Below, piece by piece: positions 16,189 through 64,000 of a stretch of DNA of 64,000 nt. Below the pieces are notes generated by a model. That model searched no databases and was not told the DNA's origin. It worked only from the letters and a program-made list of their open reading frames with translations. Each line of letters starts with the position of its first letter. Positions within the stretch are counted from its first letter, which is position 1. Both the position numbers and the translations under genes were made by a program. Origin of the DNA: a bacterium (GTDB lineage Bacteria; UBA9089; JASEGY01); assembly GCA_040753085.1 (NCBI GenBank), contig JBFMHI010000002.1, positions 4,087 through 68,086 on the forward strand, given 5' to 3'.

Positions 16189-16337
16189 GTAACCGTTCAT
16201 CACATGATGCTTGATCCTCGATGCTCGATGCTCGATCCTCGATGCTGGTAAAGGATCCAGTATCCAGGATCGAGCATCGAGCATCGAGCATCGAGCATCG
16301 AGGTTGTGTCTTTGTGGCTTAGTGGCTGAACGGTTAC
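16189..16337. mobile_element. CATCGAG-family MITE (TIR GTAACCGTTCA / TGAACGGTTAC, inverted heptamer arrays around centre GGTAAAGGATCCAGTATCCAGG)
   Basis: gtaaccgttcatcacatgatg...ctcgatg arrays...catcgag arrays...ggctgaacggttac; inserted directly beside the previous element. Confidence 0.7.
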
Positions 16338-17349: not shown

Positions 17350-17425
17350 CTATTAGGGCGATGTTCATCCTTTTGGCCATTTGTCGAATCGCTAATCTTG
17401 AATTGCGAATCGCCAATCTATCTTT

Positions 17426-17559
17426 GTAACCGTTCAGCACATGATGCTGGATGCTCGATGCTCGATCTTCGATGCTGGTAAAGGATTCAGTATCCAGGAT
17501 CGAGCATCCAGCATCGAGGATCGAGGATCGAGTTTGTGCCTTAGGGGCTGAACGCTTAC
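17426..17559. mobile_element. CATCGAG-family MITE (TIR GTAACCGTTCA / TGAACGCTTAC) nested between ATTCGCG heptamer arrays at 17385-17418 and 17572-17612
   Basis: gtaaccgttcagcacatgatgctggatgctcgatgctcgatcttcgatgctggtaaaggattcagtatccaggatcgagcatcc...ggctgaacgcttac, with flanks aattgcgaatcgccaatct and aattcgcaattcgcgatccgcgattcgcgatt. Confidence 0.7.
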
Positions 17560-42376: not shown

Positions 42377-42463
42377 GTAACTATTCAGCCACAAAGACAC
42401 TAAGACACGAAGATTATAAGAATTATTCTTTGTGCCTTTGTGCCTTGGTGGCTGAATAGTGAC
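42377..42463. mobile_element. GTGTCTT-family MITE (TIR GTAACTATTCAGCCAC / GTGGCTGAATAGTGAC) with a perfect 8-bp TSD AATTTACG, inserted into a CTATTCGGG/GTGTCTTCGTGGC repeat context
   Basis: AATTTACG at 42369-42376 and 42464-42471; internal arrays aaagacactaagacacgaag / ctttgtgcctttgtgcc. Confidence 0.75.
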
Positions 42464-50957: not shown

Positions 50958-51245
50958 CGACCTGTGAAATAGGTTTATACAAATATCCCCCAATTAGGGT
51001 AAGAAAGAGAATAAACAGATCGCTCCTCTGGAGCTAATTTGTTATGAGAGATATATTCTACAAACATGTCGCTCCTCTGGAGCTAACCTGAATAAAGCTC
51101 CGTAGGAGAGCAATCTGTTTGTAGTATTTCGCAAAAGCAATATATTTGCAGCTCCGTAGGAGCGACCTGTTTTTAGTAGTAGAGCTTGAATATCTATGTC
51201 TATGGGAAGTTTCTTGCATTTTATTTAAATCTATTTCACAGGTCG
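50958..51245. mobile_element. 288-bp MITE (20-bp TIR CGACCTGTGAAATAGGTTTA / TAAATCTATTTCACAGGTCG) with a perfect 8-bp TSD AAATTTTT; the internal GCTCC-nnn-GGAGC hairpin units (GTCGCTCCTACGGAGC and its variant GCTCCAGAGGAGC) are arranged as a long palindrome; inverted copy at 62578-62866
   Basis: AAATTTTT at 50950-50957 and 51246-51253; the element is inserted immediately after the terminus of the previous element. Confidence 0.8.
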
Positions 51246-53289: not shown

Positions 53290-53700
53290 TCAATGAACAT
53301 TCTTCTTTAGCATAACTTCTTTCACTGGAACAGGGTAAGCACTGATGACATCATCCATCGTTGTAATGATCAGACCGTGCGCCAATGCTTGGCAAATTAG
53401 CATACGGTCAAACGGATCACGGTGAATCGATGGCAGATTGGCAAGTTTACACACGCTGGCTTCATCGAGCGACAAGCTGGCAATTTGATGCTGTTGGCGC
53501 TGAATGGGGAGATAAACATCGGGTGGTTGAGGTAATGGCAATTTGCCAAGGTGATACTTGACCGTGGCCTCCCACAGAGATACCACGCTCAAATAGACCT
53601 CATTACTCAAGTCACGAATCGCATCACGCATACCAGCCGATAGGCGTCTGTCTGCGCTGATAAACCAAAGGAAGATCTGGGTATCTAGTAAGTGCTTCAT
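53290..53700 (-). CDS. vapC: type II toxin VapC-like PIN-domain ribonuclease
   Basis: N-terminal LLDTQIFLW with conserved Asp; PIN-like acidic residues; 4-bp overlap with the upstream antitoxin gene; GC-rich. Confidence 0.7.
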   Translation of the reverse strand: MKHLLDTQIFLWFISADRRLSAGMRDAIRDLSNEVYLSVVSLWEATVKYHLGKLPLPQPPDVYLPIQRQQHQIASLSLDEASVCKLANLPSIHRDPFDRMLICQALAHGLIITTMDDVISAYPVPVKEVMLKKNVH

Positions 53701-56378: not shown

Positions 56379-56467
56379 GTAACCGTTCATCCCTCGATGC
56401 TGGATCCCCGATGCTCGATGCTCGAGCATCGGGGATCGAGTTTGTGCCTTAGTGGCTGAACGCTTAC
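56379..56467. mobile_element. short CATCGAG-family MITE (TIR GTAACCGTTCA / TGAACGCTTAC)
   Basis: gtaaccgttcatccctcgatgctggatccccgatgctcgatgctcgagcatcggggatcgagtttgtgccttagtggctgaacgcttac. Confidence 0.7.
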
Positions 56468-56531
56468 GAAATATGAAAGTGGATATGTTAGGCTCTTGTT
56501 TCTCTGGAAGGACAAGTGAAGATTAGGCCCT

Positions 56532-58829
56532 ATGAAAGATTTCAATCTCTTACAGGTAAGCAGTATAATTTTACTCCTTTTGCTCTTCCTCCCTGGTTGC
56601 TGGACCAGGGATGAAGTAATGACCATCCGTCTTTGGGAATTCCCCCGCTGGCGTGAGGGGGATGAGCTGGACCGCTTTGTCTGGATCAAGCGTCAGATAG
56701 CCGAGTTTGAAGCGAGCCATCCTGGGGTCAAGATCGAGTTGACTGAGTTGACCTGGGATAGGGGCCAGGATAAGATCCGGATCGCCACCGCGGCCGGGTT
56801 GGGGCCGGACATTGTCTCCGGCAGTCTGCCGGTGGAATATATTGAAGCCGGAGTGATAGAACCAATAGATGATTATCTGGCTCTCGAGGATAAGAAAGAT
56901 TACTACCCGGCCGGCTTCAGCGCCTATACCTATAAAGGCAAACACTGGGGCTGGCCATGGTTTCTGACCGGTCAGATGCTTTTTTTGAATCTGGATATAT
57001 TTAAAGAACGGGGAGTGGAACCCCCACAGGGTCCCTGGACTTACGAAGAGTTTGCCGCTAAAATGAAGGCCATGACCTTTGATTCTGACGGAGATAAAAG
57101 GGTAGACACTTATGGCTTCGGCTTTACAGTCACTCCCGGCGCCACCGATATCTGGCCATTTCTTTATATGGATGGCGGCCGCGCCTTGAGTGATGATCTC
57201 ACGCAATATACCTTTGATGAACCACCTGGCGTCTCCGGCCTGAGCCAACTGCGGGACCTGGTCCATACCTACCGGGTGTCTTTACCGGAGAGTGGTGGTC
57301 TGAAAACAACCGACCTCTGGCAGGCCTTTGCCAAGCAGAGACGGATTGCCTGCGCTCCCTGGGGTATTTGGGCCATCCCTGCCCTAAGGTTTGATGAGGC
57401 CCAAAAAGCGAAGGGATTAACGGAGGAGGATTTCTTTGACTTCACGGTGGTCGGTTATCCTATGGGCAAGAGCGGCCAACCTTTAACTTTCATTGGGGTA
57501 AGTGGGTTCATTGTCTTTAAACAGCCTGACCCTGCCAGGCGAGATATGTGCATAGAACTGGCTAAATCTCTTACCAGCGGTCAGAACCAGAAGGCTCTGG
57601 CTGCTTATGGGGTCTTTCCTACCCGCGTCTCAGCCGGGAATATTTATCCGGACGATCCCTATATGACTAAGGCGGCTAAAATCCTTCAGGATGGCCTAAC
57701 TGTTCCGGCTCATCCTGATTGGGGTAAGATGGATGAGGTCATTCAGCGGCAGATCCAATTGGCTGTTTTGGGTGAAAAAAGTGCGGCTGCCGCCCTGACT
57801 GATGCCGGAGTAGAGGTTGAAGCTATCCTGTCTCAAAGGCTAAAGACCACTGCCGACTTGAAGGGCATTGGAGTCGGGGAAAAGGCGGGAAACTACCTCT
57901 ATCTTTTTCTATTTCTGGCTGGAGCCTTGATACTCTGGTTAGGACTGAAGATGAGGGGCATAAAGGAATCCACCCGCTTTGCCTACCTAGCTATTTCCCC
58001 GGCGATGCTTATCTTTGCCGTTTTCCTGGCCTTTCCGGTCGGTCGGGCCTTTTTATTGGCCTTTCAGGAATACGAAATCGGCGGCCCTATCCTGGGGAAT
58101 TGGGTCGGCGCCGACAACTTTCGGGCCTTAGCTAAAAATGAGGTCTTCTGGAAATCCCTGAAGAATACCCTGGTCTACACGGCCTTTACGGTCCCGATAA
58201 ATGTCCTGATTGCCCTTATTCTGGCTAGCCTCATTCATCCCTTATCCGACCGCATGCGGACCTTTTTCCGGGCGGCCTATTATCTCCCCCATGTCACCTC
58301 AGTAGTGGTCATCTCCATGGTCTGGCGCTGGCTTTTTGATTACAACTACGGTCTCTTAAACCAGGTCCTTACCGGCCTGGGCCTTGAAGGCCTTCACTGG
58401 CTGACTGATGTTCACCTGGCCATGGGCAGCATCATTGGCTCCAGCCTGCTTTACACCCCTGGCGGCCCGATTATTATCTATCTGGCGGCTCTGGCGGCCA
58501 TGCCTTCTTCCCTTCACGAAGCAGCCCTGATGGACGGGGCCGGGCCAATCCGCCGCTGGTGGCACATCACCCTCCCCCTGCTTCGACCCACTACCCTGTT
58601 TTTGTTAGTCACTACTTCCATCGCCTCCTTTCAGGTCTTTGCCCAGGTGCTCATTCTAACTGATGGCGGCCCTGGCTATGCCACTTCTGTCTTAGTTCAC
58701 CGCATCTACACCACCGCCTTTAGAGACTTTGACTTCGGCCTCGCCTCAGCTATGGCCTTGATTCTTTTTGTAGTCATTATGACTATCTCTGCCATCCAAT
58801 TTAAGATTTTCAGGAAAAAATGGGAGTAA
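56532..58829 (+). CDS. fused ABC transporter: carbohydrate substrate-binding lipoprotein (aa 1 to about 450) plus permease domain (aa about 460-765)
   Basis: Lipoprotein signal LLLLLFLPGCW; SBP family 1-like domain; then 6 TM helices with EAA loop EAALMDGAGPIRRWWHITLP in the same reading frame. Confidence 0.7.
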   Translation: MKDFNLLQVSSIILLLLLFLPGCWTRDEVMTIRLWEFPRWREGDELDRFVWIKRQIAEFEASHPGVKIELTELTWDRGQDKIRIATAAGLGPDIVSGSLPVEYIEAGVIEPIDDYLALEDKKDYYPAGFSAYTYKGKHWGWPWFLTGQMLFLNLDIFKERGVEPPQGPWTYEEFAAKMKAMTFDSDGDKRVDTYGFGFTVTPGATDIWPFLYMDGGRALSDDLTQYTFDEPPGVSGLSQLRDLVHTYRVSLPESGGLKTTDLWQAFAKQRRIACAPWGIWAIPALRFDEAQKAKGLTEEDFFDFTVVGYPMGKSGQPLTFIGVSGFIVFKQPDPARRDMCIELAKSLTSGQNQKALAAYGVFPTRVSAGNIYPDDPYMTKAAKILQDGLTVPAHPDWGKMDEVIQRQIQLAVLGEKSAAAALTDAGVEVEAILSQRLKTTADLKGIGVGEKAGNYLYLFLFLAGALILWLGLKMRGIKESTRFAYLAISPAMLIFAVFLAFPVGRAFLLAFQEYEIGGPILGNWVGADNFRALAKNEVFWKSLKNTLVYTAFTVPINVLIALILASLIHPLSDRMRTFFRAAYYLPHVTSVVVISMVWRWLFDYNYGLLNQVLTGLGLEGLHWLTDVHLAMGSIIGSSLLYTPGGPIIIYLAALAAMPSSLHEAALMDGAGPIRRWWHITLPLLRPTTLFLLVTTSIASFQVFAQVLILTDGGPGYATSVLVHRIYTTAFRDFDFGLASAMALILFVVIMTISAIQFKIFRKKWE

Positions 58830-59025
58830 CTATTCAGCCACGGATTAACCCGGATTAGCACGGATAAAATAGAATGAGTTTAAAATAGGGAAAAATAACA
58901 GAGGACATTATCGGGAGGAGCATTTGAAGTTTACAATTTGGAAGAGAAAGAGTTGAATTTAAACGATTCATATTATTAAAAAAAATCAGTGTTTCATCCG
59001 TGTAAATCTGTGGCTGAATAGTTAC
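58826..59025. repeat. hairpin element with TIR GTAACTATTCAGCCAC / GTGGCTGAATAGTTAC and CGGATTA-type heptamers, large central loop
   Basis: gtaactattcagccacggattaacccggattagcacggat ... tcatccgtgtaaatctgtggctgaatagttac; partial relatives at 53215-53260, 62367-62405 and 62880-62930. Confidence 0.6.
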
Positions 59026-59112
59026 TCGTGAACAAAGATTAGAGGGAAATCGAGGATCGAGCATCGAACATCGAGCATCGAGGATTATCGGGTGGCGGCG
59101 GGAGGCAGCGCT

Positions 59113-60595: not shown

Positions 60596-61537
60596 TCAGG
60601 TAGCTGAGAGGTGTCCACCCCAGCGGAGCTTTGTTTTCAAGACCTGGTAAAAACTCCTGGCCTCGGGCTTGACTAAATAAATACACTCTTTGGCCTTTCC
60701 GGCGGTGATTCTGTCGCCTGACTTTAATGGATAGCCTGACTGGCCATCCTGGGTGAGCATCATCTCTCCTCGCGGTCCGGAGGAGACAACCAGGGATATC
60801 TCCTCATCAGGGCCAATGATGACAGGTCGCAGGGCCAGGGTATGAGGGCAAATAGGCGTGGCCATCAAGACCTCTAATCCGGGATTCAAGATTGGCCCAC
60901 CAGCCGAGAGGGAGTAAGCCGTAGAGCCGGTGGGGGTGGCCAGGATCATCCCGTCGGCTTCAAAGTTGGCTACTAATTCATCAGCAATAAAGAGGGTAAT
61001 GTTGATAGACCTGGCTAATGCCCCGCAGGTGATGACCACATCGTTTAAGGCCTTAAAGGCGGCGGCTTCAGTTCCTTCTCTCTCCACCTTCGCCTCCAGC
61101 ATCATCCTGGGCTCCAGTTCAAAGCGGTGGGCTAAGATGGACTCGATGGCAGGAAAAAGTTCCTCCTGGGTTACTTCGGTTAGAAAACCCAGGCTGCCTA
61201 AATTCACCGCCAGAATAGGCACGCCTTCAGGCCAGGCCAGTTGGGCCGTGTGAAGAAGGGTGCCATCTCCGCCCAGGGCGATAAGTAGGTCGGCCTCAGC
61301 TCCCAAATTAGCTGAAACAGAAATGGCTTTCTTGGCCAGGTCTAAAGACGCCCCTGGTTCGATAAGGGCCTTAATGTCCTTCTTATCCAGCCAGTCAATC
61401 AATTTAGAGGCCACTACTGCCGCCCCTGGCCGGTAAGGATTGACTACCAAACCTATCTTCTTTATGGCGGATGGCGCACCCACTTTGTGGGTAGCCGGGA
61501 TTGCGGATTGCGGATTGCGGATTGCGGATTGTTTCAT
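60596..61537 (-). CDS. nadK: NAD+ kinase (true start probably downstream of the repeat-encoded N-terminus)
   Basis: GGDGTLL motif and NAD-kinase fold. The track N-terminus MKQSAIRNPQSAIP is translated from a CAATCCG heptamer array. Confidence 0.85.
   Translation of the reverse strand: MKQSAIRNPQSAIPATHKVGAPSAIKKIGLVVNPYRPGAAVVASKLIDWLDKKDIKALIEPGASLDLAKKAISVSANLGAEADLLIALGGDGTLLHTAQLAWPEGVPILAVNLGSLGFLTEVTQEELFPAIESILAHRFELEPRMMLEAKVEREGTEAAAFKALNDVVITCGALARSINITLFIADELVANFEADGMILATPTGSTAYSLSAGGPILNPGLEVLMATPICPHTLALRPVIIGPDEEISLVVSSGPRGEMMLTQDGQSGYPLKSGDRITAGKAKECIYLVKPEARSFYQVLKTKLRWGGHLSAT
61493..61532. repeat. CGGATTG heptamer array (x5) at the 5' end of nadK
   Basis: gggattgcggattgcggattgcggattgcggattg. 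Confidence 0.7.
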
Positions 61538-61555
61538 CAGAAAAACTCCCTAATA

Positions 61556-61640
61556 TGGATGCTGGATGCTCGATACTCGATACTCGATACTCGATGCTCG
61601 AGCCTCGAGTATCGAGTATCGAGTATAGAGCATCGAGGAT
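61556..61640. repeat. CATCGAG-family heptamer hairpin (no outer TIR)
   Basis: gatgctggatgctcgatactcgatactcgatactcgatgctcgagcctcgagtatcgagtatcgagtatagagcatcgagg. Confidence 0.7.
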
Positions 61641-62352: not shown

Positions 62353-62405
62353 AAGTTTAATAGATAGTAACTATTCAGCCACACAGATTTAAACACTGAT
62401 TTTTT

Positions 62406-62577: not shown

Positions 62578-62866
62578 ACGACCTGTGAAATAGGTTTAAA
62601 TAAAATGCAAGAAATTTCCCATAGACATAGATATTCAAGCTCTACTCCTACTAAAAACAGGTCGCTCCTACGGAGCTGCAAATATATGCTTTTGCGAAAT
62701 ACTACAAACAGATTGCTCCTACGGAGCTTTATTCAGGTTAGCTCCAGAGGAGCGACATGTTTGTAGAATATATCTCTCATAACAAATTAGCTCCAGAGGA
62801 GCGATCTGTTTATTCTCTTTCTTACCCTAATTGGGGGATATTTGTATAAACCTATTTCACAGGTCG
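62578..62866. mobile_element. inverted copy of the 288-bp MITE (TIR CGACCTGTGAAATAGGTTTA) with a perfect 8-bp TSD AACACTTA, inserted into the terminus of the preceding element
   Basis: AACACTTA at 62570-62577 and 62867-62874; the sequence is the reverse complement of 50958-51245 at about 95% identity. Confidence 0.8.
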
Positions 62867-62931
62867 AACACTTACAACTCATTCTATTTTATCCGTGCTA
62901 ATCCGTGTTAATCAGTGGCTGAATAGTTACG

Positions 62932-63732
62932 TTAGAGATATCTCGAAAGAAAATCAAGGATTTTTGGGAAAAGAATCCGGGCTTCCCTAATAAAGTCTTT
63001 AATTCTATCATAAATAATATCTAAATATTCATGAGCTAAAATATTTCTTAATCTCGCAAAACTTGAAAGTTTTTTCGCCTCTTCTTCTTTAAATCCCATA
63101 AAAAATCCAAAATTTGATAAAGATTGTTCATAAGTTTTGGGTATTTCTTTTTTTTCTGAAGCCAGAATAATCTTGGCAATATCAATGGTAGCATTAACTA
63201 TATTCTCAGTCCACCTTTCAATATTCCTCCTTTTTACCTTATCTTCTTGATATTCTCGAAAGGTTAGACTCTCGAATCCTTTAATTTCTTGAAACTCACT
63301 TTCTAAAAACTGTATTCTCTCCATCAAACGCACTTTATCCTCAGGAATTAAGGAGCTACTTCTTGAATAAATCCTCCAGTAATCTCTTACAAATTCATAA
63401 AAATCTTCGGCTTCAAGCGTTGCTGTTAAATATGTATCCAAGTACAAGTATCTATCTTTAATAACAAGCGGGATACCTGTTTTAAAGACATTAGAAATCA
63501 AAGTTGGAGGAACATTATTAAGCAATACTAAATCAATTTCTTTTTCCATAATTTTACATATTTCACTCCAAATTTTATCCTCCTCTTTTATATCTCTTAG
63601 ATACACCCCGATATCTACATCCGAATCTTCCCCCGCAAATCCTTTAACTGAGGAGCCAAAAATAAAAGATAAAGCTACATTTTCATTTTCTTTAAAATAC
63701 TTCTCCAATCTTTCTAATTTATCTTTTTCCAT
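62932..63732 (-). CDS. fused nucleotidyltransferase (MNT) - HEPN domain protein, AT-rich
   Basis: N-terminal GSSVKGFAGEDSDVDIGV (NTase GS..D.D motif); C-terminal RLRNILAHEY (HEPN Rx4-6H motif); visibly lower GC than its neighbours. Confidence 0.65.
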   Translation of the reverse strand: MEKDKLERLEKYFKENENVALSFIFGSSVKGFAGEDSDVDIGVYLRDIKEEDKIWSEICKIMEKEIDLVLLNNVPPTLISNVFKTGIPLVIKDRYLYLDTYLTATLEAEDFYEFVRDYWRIYSRSSSLIPEDKVRLMERIQFLESEFQEIKGFESLTFREYQEDKVKRRNIERWTENIVNATIDIAKIILASEKKEIPKTYEQSLSNFGFFMGFKEEEAKKLSSFARLRNILAHEYLDIIYDRIKDFIREARILFPKILDFLSRYL

Positions 63733-63841
63733 TTTTTGTCTCCTGATAATTCAGCAATGTCTTCCGTTCTGCCATTACCATCCACACAGTATATACAGGT
63801 GTTATAGTTATGTCAACTACTTTCCGAGTACAGATGATGGC

Positions 63842-64000
63842 TATCTACTTATAGAGAGAAGCGAGCTATTTGCTATATGCCACTTATCTGGCATCCGCAT
63901 CACTTGCTCTGCTACCCTATCTGCCTCCTGTTCGTAAGTATCATTTAGTTTGCCGATTTTCAGTTTTGCATGAATAACTCCCGCTTTGAACAATCTTTGC
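63842..64000 (-). CDS. partial ORF running off the window end, with a DUF4157-like motif (YEQEADRVAEQVMRM)
   Basis: Minus-strand translation ...QRLFKAGVIHAKLKIGKLNDTYEQEADRVAEQVMRMPDKWHIANSSLLSISR*; my recollection of the motif family is tentative. Confidence 0.25.

Follow-up and report, generated by a model that had tools for sequence, protein, structure and literature searches.

The window, the whole stretch of 64,000 nucleotides of DNA that was analysed, harbours on its reverse strand an open reading frame (ORF) that codes for one protein, in which an MntA-type nucleotidyltransferase (MNT) half is followed by a HepT-type HEPN half (Table 1). The gene was confirmed to be real and intact. 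Its product is identical to NCBI entry MEW5766136.1, which is labelled 'HepT-like ribonuclease domain-containing protein'. An earlier note on this DNA had described the gene as encoding a single-polypeptide MNT-HEPN fusion, and the ORF, Pfam and NCBIfam all agree with that description. Instead of mntA and hepT as two separate adjacent genes, one uninterrupted ORF is found, and there is no second MNT or HEPN gene within the window. The fusion gene is a stand-alone unit, with a promoter-like site and a ribosome binding site of its own and without a partner gene. The -10 hexamer of the candidate promoter ends 55 nt upstream of the ATG; promoter-like sites show no excess across the fusion-gene region, and the TTGACA-17-TATACT arrangement is a consensus match only. 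An internal start for a free HepT at M137, where the HEPN half begins, was considered and rejected as a trait of the family. This methionine is not conserved (the position is mostly L or I in the alignment), and the sole GAGGA upstream of it lies at 13 nt, a long spacing for a Shine-Dalgarno sequence. Just upstream of the fusion gene lies an ORF of 50 amino acids on the same strand (63841-63993). We presumed it to resemble the N-terminal motif of DUF4157 proteins, a reading that is unsupported, as Pfam gave no match.

Table 1 Features of the fusion gene and its surroundings (positions are those of the window)
Feature	Position	Strand	Remarks
Complete fused MntA-HepT ORF	62932..63732	-	ATG start, 266 aa plus stop
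MNT (MntA-type, pol-beta fold) nucleotidyltransferase half, residues 1-123	63364..63732	-	Pfam, NCBIfam, model, Foldseek
Nucleotidyltransferase motif G26-S27-x10-D38-x-D40	63613..63657	-	residues 26-40
Inter-domain junction, residues 124-129	63346..63363	-	non-helical in model
HEPN (HepT-type) RNase half, residues 130-266	62935..63345	-	Pfam, NCBIfam, phmmer, Foldseek
RNase motif and acceptor tyrosine R229-N-I-L-A-H234-E-Y236	63025..63048	-	sequence and ungapped alignment
Sigma-70-like promoter TTGACA-17 nt-TATACT	63788..63816	-	11/12 consensus matches
Shine-Dalgarno AGGAGA	63739..63744	-	6 nt before ATG, direct sequence reading
Spacer, fusion-gene stop codon to livF start codon	62353..62931	.	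579 bp, nested MITE-like elements
MITE, 288 bp	62579-62866		26-nt terminal inverted repeats, 8-bp target-site duplication AACACTTA
Second copy of the 288-bp MITE, 97 % identical	50958-51245		different 8-bp target-site duplication AAAAATTT
Perfect 16-nt inverted repeat GTAACTATTCAGCCAC	62367-62382 and 62915-62930		second arm ends one base before fusion-gene stop codon
Three terminator-like hairpins inside the MITE	62802-62790, 62727-62715, 62676-62664	-	

Both halves of the protein were assigned by profile searches with scores far beyond chance. Pfam places a nucleotidyltransferase domain of the pol-beta type at residues 7-94 (PF18765, E 2.6e-18; PF01909, E 1.7e-10) and a HepT-like HEPN domain at residues 146-251 (PF01934, E 1.2e-16). 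The NCBIfam equivalogs MntA_antitoxin (64.6 bits, residues 14-113) and HepT_toxin (68.3 bits, residues 140-250) both score above the curated threshold of 60 bits. The two motifs named in the earlier note, GS..D.D and Rx4-6H, were indeed found, the former as GS-x10-DxD at residues 26-40 and the latter as RNILAH at residues 229-234, directly followed by E235 and Y236. The third carboxylate of the nucleotidyltransferase is probably D67, conserved in 37 of 39 relatives.

An AlphaFold2 model based on 39 aligned family members (mean pLDDT 88.4, pTM 0.69) shows an alpha/beta nucleotidyltransferase core with strands at residues 19-25, 39-45, 66-70 and 87-91. A long helix (residues 94-123), carrying an invariant E107-A-E109-D110-F motif, closes the MNT half, and after the short junction the C-terminal half is all-helical. 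In Foldseek searches against the PDB the N-terminal half superposes on MntA structures 8xeo, 6m6u and 7bxo (TM 0.69-0.75). Residues ~130-266 superpose on the HEPN toxin of A. flos-aquae (7ae6, 7ae8, 7ae9; target-normalised TM 0.74-0.79, rmsd 2.5-2.9 Å) and the C-terminal half also on HepT of S. oneidensis. The assignment of the C-terminal region to HEPN, on which the earlier reading depended, is thereby borne out. Phmmer likewise matched the HEPN half to the 7ae9 toxin (E 1e-4), its residues 136-256 forming a gap-free alignment with positions 9-129 of the A. flos-aquae protein. In this alignment R229, H234 and Y236 correspond to R102, H107 and Y109, and R173 to R46. R102, H107 and Y109 are, according to the titles of PDB entries 7ae2, 7ae6, 7ae8 and 7ae9, the residues that were mutated or AMPylated; Y236 thus sits at the position of Y109, the AMPylated residue of the A. 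flos-aquae HEPN protein.

Conservation was analysed in 39 family members of 51-72 % identity. G26, S27, D38, D40, H234 and Y236 are each found in all 39 relatives, R173 in 38, N230 in 37 and R229 in 36, so the Rx4-6H motif is conserved among homologues, as the earlier reading had demanded. The residues that matter in characterised systems are all present in the fusion protein and, judged from the alignment, are kept family-wide. The junction lies within a conserved motif, RSxSL(I/A/V)PE(D/E), of which S127, L128 and E131 are invariant among the 39 relatives. The sole cysteine of the fusion protein, C59, is located in the MNT half. The HEPN half lacks cysteines altogether in 28 of the 39 family members, and no cysteine is conserved there.

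These data bear on the possibility that the protein is a domesticated nucleotidyltransferase acting on a small molecule or protein, with the HEPN-like domain as a substrate-binding lid without RNase function, as in the kanamycin, streptomycin and lincosamide nucleotidyltransferases on which this idea is modelled. Full-length Foldseek matches to ANT(4'), AadA, AAD(9) and LinB (E 7e-4 to 1e-2) are in line with such a role, and MNT-fused HEPN domains were reported to 'typically lack' catalytic residues and to be domesticated (Anantharaman et al. 2013; PMC3710099). However, the whole-chain superposition on ANT(4'), AadA and LinB is poor (TM 0.24-0.30, rmsd ~15 Å), and the protein has no Pfam or NCBIfam match to aminoglycoside or lincosamide nucleotidyltransferase families while passing the HepT_toxin equivalog cut-off. 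With R-x4-H and the acceptor tyrosine near-invariant in the family, a role as a domesticated nucleotidyltransferase is considered very unlikely.

A search of 5.8 billion proteins yielded 508 matches. Both domains are present in all of the best 120 of these, and their lengths nearly all fall between 242 and 302 amino acids, with outliers of 213 and 347 amino acids. Scanning one genome per species revealed family loci in at least 292 genomes at species level, the majority of them MAGs. The best 80 of the 292 loci belong to Deltaproteobacteria, WOR-3, Clostridia, Aerophobetes, Thermodesulfobacteriota, Patescibacteria, Omnitrophota, Brocadiales, Nitrospirota, Chloroflexota, Elusimicrobiota, Spirochaetota and others; the Brocadiales carriers include the complete genome of Ca. 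Brocadia pituitae. The gene might also be looked upon as an inert remnant, either a decaying product of accidental stop-codon loss in an operon or an assembly or frameshift artefact, since it lies in a repeat-ridden, compositionally foreign patch with an apparent short ORF fragment just upstream. Against this stand the number of homologues and the fused architecture in all best 120, the spread of the family over so many species-level genomes, the invariant or nearly invariant catalytic residues and junction motif, and the intact ORF with its promoter-like site and ribosome binding site. Family-wide conservation effectively refutes the remnant reading, which is regarded as extremely unlikely.

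The base composition of the gene differs from that of its surroundings. Its GC content is 0.306, compared to 0.484 for the 10 kb to the left and 0.458 for the whole window, and its GC3 is 0.243 versus 0.39-0.59 in ten other genes of the window. Host genes have a GC content of 0.42-0.54 versus ~0.31 for the fusion gene. The AT-rich block described earlier is therefore real, and the strongly deviant base composition suggests horizontal acquisition of the fusion gene. Family genes are lower in GC than their flanks in 55 of 63 loci (median difference -0.05), and AT-richness is therefore partly a trait of the family and not only a sign of recent transfer; the difference of -0.18 at the window locus is larger than at every other locus.

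The earlier note had also placed a stack of MITEs between the fusion gene and livF. This spacer indeed consists of nested inverted-repeat elements, and the product of livF is an ABC-transporter ATPase that matches the branched-chain C-terminal motif only weakly. The 288-bp element is a true MITE, having target-site duplications at both of its copies in the window, while the other spacer elements are defined solely by dispersed inverted-repeat motifs. The GTAACTATTCAGCCAC motif occurs at six or more further sites in the window. The flanking MITEs show that the site of the fusion gene is a target for mobile DNA.

Links of the family itself to phages and plasmids were searched for in several collections. 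No family members were found in a scan of 2.9 million viral contigs, tblastn against 50,697 phage records gave no family match, and the fusion protein has no match in PHROGs. Among 72,556 plasmids tblastn revealed no close relatives; its 8 matches were all distant and in most cases split pairs from haloarchaea, of 23-25 % identity. No integrase or phage genes were seen, and the window ends 268 bp upstream of the gene. No conserved partner gene was detected in 81 loci, the commonest neighbour cluster occurring in 6 of them; the genes that recur nearby are further MNT and HEPN genes, AAA ATPases, a HicB-like ORF and a second fused paralogue.

An alternative concerns the biological role of the protein and not its chemistry. 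The same protein could act as an anti-phage abortive-infection sensor and provide defence from a single gene, instead of being a toxin-antitoxin system for stress or addiction. A signal from the phage (one of its proteins, a collapse of ATP or activation of a protease) would then free the HEPN RNase, as in fused CapRel. The analogy with CapRel has been drawn in the literature (PMC13000451). The MNT, HEPN, HicB-like and AAA-ATPase genes that often adjoin related loci are typical of variable islands, and PADLOC gave weak matches to two candidate families, PDC-S09 for the MNT part (E 7e-7) and PDC-M05B for the HEPN part (E 3e-4). These two families are unvalidated candidates, however, no known defence gene was identified beside the window copy, and there is no MntA-HepT system with a known trigger. 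A role in anti-phage defence is therefore viewed as quite improbable.

The relation between fused and split forms was studied with the HEPN half alone, which was searched against 1.84 billion cluster representatives and gave 467 matches at E <= 1e-3, of which 170 at E <= 1e-10. Among the 102 matches that cover most of the HEPN domain, 45 are fused, with a length of ~280 amino acids and HEPN at ~140-280, 20 are ambiguous and 37 have stand-alone length, a count that needs checking because short matches inside the fused clade may be contig-edge fragments and at least one 'split' entry is of this kind. This entry, P0122 (139 amino acids, 60 % identity), begins only 31 nt away from the end of its contig and was rejected as a stand-alone HepT; it is a truncated fused gene. 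About half of the HepT subfamily to which the fusion protein belongs is thus fused.

All three stand-alone HepT relatives that were examined (P0165, P0156 and P0164) have an MNT gene directly upstream, which codes for 124-142 amino acids and overlaps the start of the HepT gene by 4-32 nt. The nearest stand-alone HepT relatives are 35-41 % identical to the HEPN half of the fusion protein, and the split MntA partners are 34-41 % identical to its N-terminal half. Projected onto the fusion, the C-termini of split MntA and the N-termini of split HepT fall at about residues 120-131, and the order of the parts in the split operons, MNT before HEPN, is that of the fusion. The two halves are collinear with the split mntA and hepT genes, and the fusion therefore corresponds to read-through of the entire operon.

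In a neighbour-joining tree of the HEPN domain, calculated without support values, fused and split forms, whose distribution the earlier note had proposed to examine, are interleaved (~15 parsimony changes). This suggests that fusions probably arose more than once. All 10 fused proteins located within a mostly-split part of the tree are true MNT-HepT fusions. Given the lack of support values and the contig-edge fragment among the split entries, we propose no more than that the state changed, by fusion or by fission, on more than one occasion. A parallel is known from Shewanella, where fused and split forms that are >90 % similar coexist, which matches repeated fusion or fission (PMC13000451).

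Fusions of this kind have been described before. A HEPN-MNT fusion was mentioned on plasmid pAgK84 (Makarova et al. 2009; PMC2701414), and the DUF86 HEPN family was reported to be 'occasionally fused to MNT', in a study that also predicted nucleotidylation of the conserved tyrosine (Anantharaman et al. 2013; PMC3710099). More recently a fused MNT-HEPN protein, FhepTA (SO_1440, 276 amino acids) of prophage CP4So of Shewanella oneidensis MR-1, was characterised (Yao et al. 2026; PMC13000451). Full-length FhepTA is non-toxic, whereas its isolated HEPN domain is toxic and dimeric. AMPylation by the MNT domain places three AMP on Y240, which is part of the motif R-(polar)-x3-H-x-Y, and requires D41 and D43 of the GS-x10-D41xD43 motif, mutation of which abolishes it. 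The reaction is intramolecular and the linker SAQNHFIIL is essential for it; the protein is monomeric, dimerisation of HEPN being blocked by the attached MNT domain. Cysteines C163 and C270, specific to FhepTA, form a redox-dependent switch of oligomerisation (all PMC13000451). A scan of the viral contigs for the back-translated linker sequence AQNHFIIL gave 2 matches, both due to chance, as neither site has an MNT-HEPN gene. The novelty of the architecture was overestimated in the earlier note. It is not novel, being present in the literature (PMC2701414, PMC3710099, PMC13000451) and in the NCBI annotation of MEW5766136.1, and, as stated above, the fused form is common in this HepT subfamily. 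The design is also widespread among bacteria that have not been cultured.

The gene is likely to be a type VII mntA-hepT operon fused into one polypeptide of the FhepTA kind, in which self-AMPylation of Y236, together with the monomeric status that the MNT domain imposes, would keep the RNase inactive. This reading draws directly on the domains, the fold, the conservation of residues, the collinearity with the operon and the stand-alone layout of the gene. By homology to solved proteins of ~25 % identity, the protein is predicted to perform AMPylation, to have RNase activity and to be toxic when released, and a trigger for its release is likewise postulated on this basis. The N-terminal domain would attach one or more AMP, derived from ATP, to Y236, two residues past the catalytic H234, and the AMP would block the RNase site. 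In addition, the tethered MNT domain may hinder HEPN-HEPN dimerisation, on which the activity of HEPN RNases depends. Only once this control is lost would RNA be cleaved and growth arrested, possibly because ATP is depleted, AMP is taken off again or the N-terminal half is proteolysed. In FhepTA, abolishing AMPylation was by itself not enough to free the toxicity (PMC13000451), which counts against this explanation, and either layer of control may be the dominant one. The suggestion in the earlier note that the protein could be a self-regulated RNase or a nucleotide-modifying enzyme is supported, and self-regulation has been demonstrated for FhepTA (PMC13000451).

A different view of the release step is that the cysteine-free clade, with its at least 292 species-level genomes, represents a fusion lineage independent of FhepTA. 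The junction S127-L128-x-x-E131 and the E107-A-E109-D110-F helix might then provide another release mechanism, e.g. a trigger-binding or protease-sensing hinge. We put this forward tentatively and as an unlikely alternative; if true, the protein would be a single-gene defence or stress switch and not a simple tethered toxin-antitoxin pair. The discovery value of an operon fused in the manner of FhepTA is small, because its architecture, chemistry and regulation have been published and the protein has been annotated, and its value lies mainly in comparison with known systems.

The antibiotic nucleotidyltransferases ANT(4')/KNTase (1kny), AadA (5g4a) and LinB (3jyy) resemble the window protein in combining, within a chain of ~250-265 amino acids, a pol-beta nucleotidyltransferase domain with a helical bundle behind it that belongs to the HEPN clan. 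The bundle of these enzymes has no Rx4H RNase motif, whereas the window protein has retained it. Further known systems are the type VII HepT/MntA pairs, i.e. HEPN/MNT of A. flos-aquae (7ae2, 7ae6, 7ae8, 7ae9), SO_3166/SO_3165 of S. oneidensis (5yep, 6m6u-w, 7bxo) and 8xeh/8xeo. With these two-gene systems the protein shares the domains, their order (MNT 5', HEPN 3'), the catalytic residues, the acceptor tyrosine and the folds (TM 0.69-0.79). It differs from them in being encoded by one ORF instead of two overlapping genes and in its ~25 % identity to the solved proteins. As MNT and HEPN are encoded in one ORF, their stoichiometry is fixed at 1:1, and any differential turnover of the antitoxin must act within one chain.

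[quoted passage not shown] Both proteins are encoded monocistronically, without a partner gene, and for both closely related two-gene versions exist beside the fused ones. FhepTA is located in prophage CP4So, whereas no phage match or close plasmid match was found for the window family. Intact-RNase MNT-HEPN fusions are not confined to mobile elements of Shewanella and are spread over many phyla. The HEPN half of FhepTA contains C163, C186, C213 and C270, whereas that of the window protein is free of cysteines. The redox and oligomerisation switch of FhepTA therefore cannot operate in the window protein, and this redox layer is not a general property of MNT-HEPN fusions. The junctions occupy an equivalent place and are both short, yet the RSxSL(I/A/V)PE(D/E) motif of the window family differs from SAQNHFIIL, the essential linker of FhepTA, and intramolecular AMPylation is therefore only assumed here. 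This conserved motif is a specific candidate for arranging self-AMPylation or toxin release within one chain.

The spacer between the fused MntA-HepT (fusion) gene and livF, an ABC-transporter ATPase gene, is in its entirety enclosed by one perfect inverted pair of the motif GTAACTATTCAGCCAC and harbours one of two copies of a 288-bp MITE. The copies share 97% identity and lie in opposite orientation, with a separate 8-bp target-site duplication around each (AACACTTA; AAAAATTT). Inside this MITE, GCTCC-NNN-GGAGC hairpins were found that scored as terminator-like. Sites with GTAACTATTCAGCCAC or the variant form GTAACCGTTCAGCCAC(CAAGGCACGAAGACACGAA) are scattered across the window, frequently as inverted pairs; the motif is probably the terminus of a second small repeat family, more abundant than the 288-bp MITE.

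Coordinates of repeats, neighbouring genes and related loci
Feature	Location	Strand	Remarks
288-bp MITE, copy one	window 62579-62866		26-nt terminal inverted repeats CGACCTGTGAAATAGGTTTAAATAAA
288-bp MITE, copy two	window 50958-51245		26-nt terminal inverted repeats CGACCTGTGAAATAGGTTTAAATAAA
GTAACTATTCAGCCAC, inverted pair	window 62367-62382 / 62915-62930		
GTAACTATTCAGCCAC or variant, other sites	window 58825-58841, 59009-59026, 42377-42393, 17423-17438, 16306-16337, 56444-56469		
Heptamer tandem-repeat runs	window 61498-61637		between NAD-kinase-like gene and livF
50-aa ORF	window 63841-63993	-	immediately upstream of fusion gene promoter
PIN-domain protein, 136 aa	window 53290-53700	-	PF01850, E 2.3e-11
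Fusion-family member	L045 10001-10816		Elusimicrobia MAG
Second fused MNT-HEPN paralogue	L045 11322-12248		308-aa ORF, ~500 bp downstream of family member
Separate small MNT gene	L045 12245-12595		after second paralogue
HEPN-like gene	L045 12592-12984		after small MNT gene
Example plasmid match	NZ_CP100403.1 22569-23300		tblastn

The heptamer runs are ordered as (GGATTGC)x5, followed by (GATACTC)x5 opposed to (TCGAGTA)x5 as an inverted pair, and these repeats account for the strings 'IRNPQSAIRNPQ' and 'SSIEYRVSSIE' in spurious ORFs of this region. The 50-aa ORF includes 'YEQEADRVAEQVMRMP' followed by a stop. It bears some resemblance to the N-terminal motif of DUF4157 proteins, but a Pfam comparison of this ORF gave no match. 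The ORF is possibly a truncated gene on the margin of the AT-rich patch; the window itself ends at 64000. The PIN-domain protein is probably a VapC-type toxin.

At L045, one of the family loci compared for neighbouring genes, the second fused paralogue is followed by separate MNT and HEPN-like genes, and fused and split modules thus occur in tandem. In H1-H5, distant tblastn matches of the fusion protein on haloarchaeal megaplasmids, one alignment spans 89% of the fusion at 23-25% identity. This single alignment runs over two adjoining annotated genes, a nucleotidyltransferase and then a DUF86 gene, and so reveals split pairs ordered as in the fusion and apparently sharing one reading frame.
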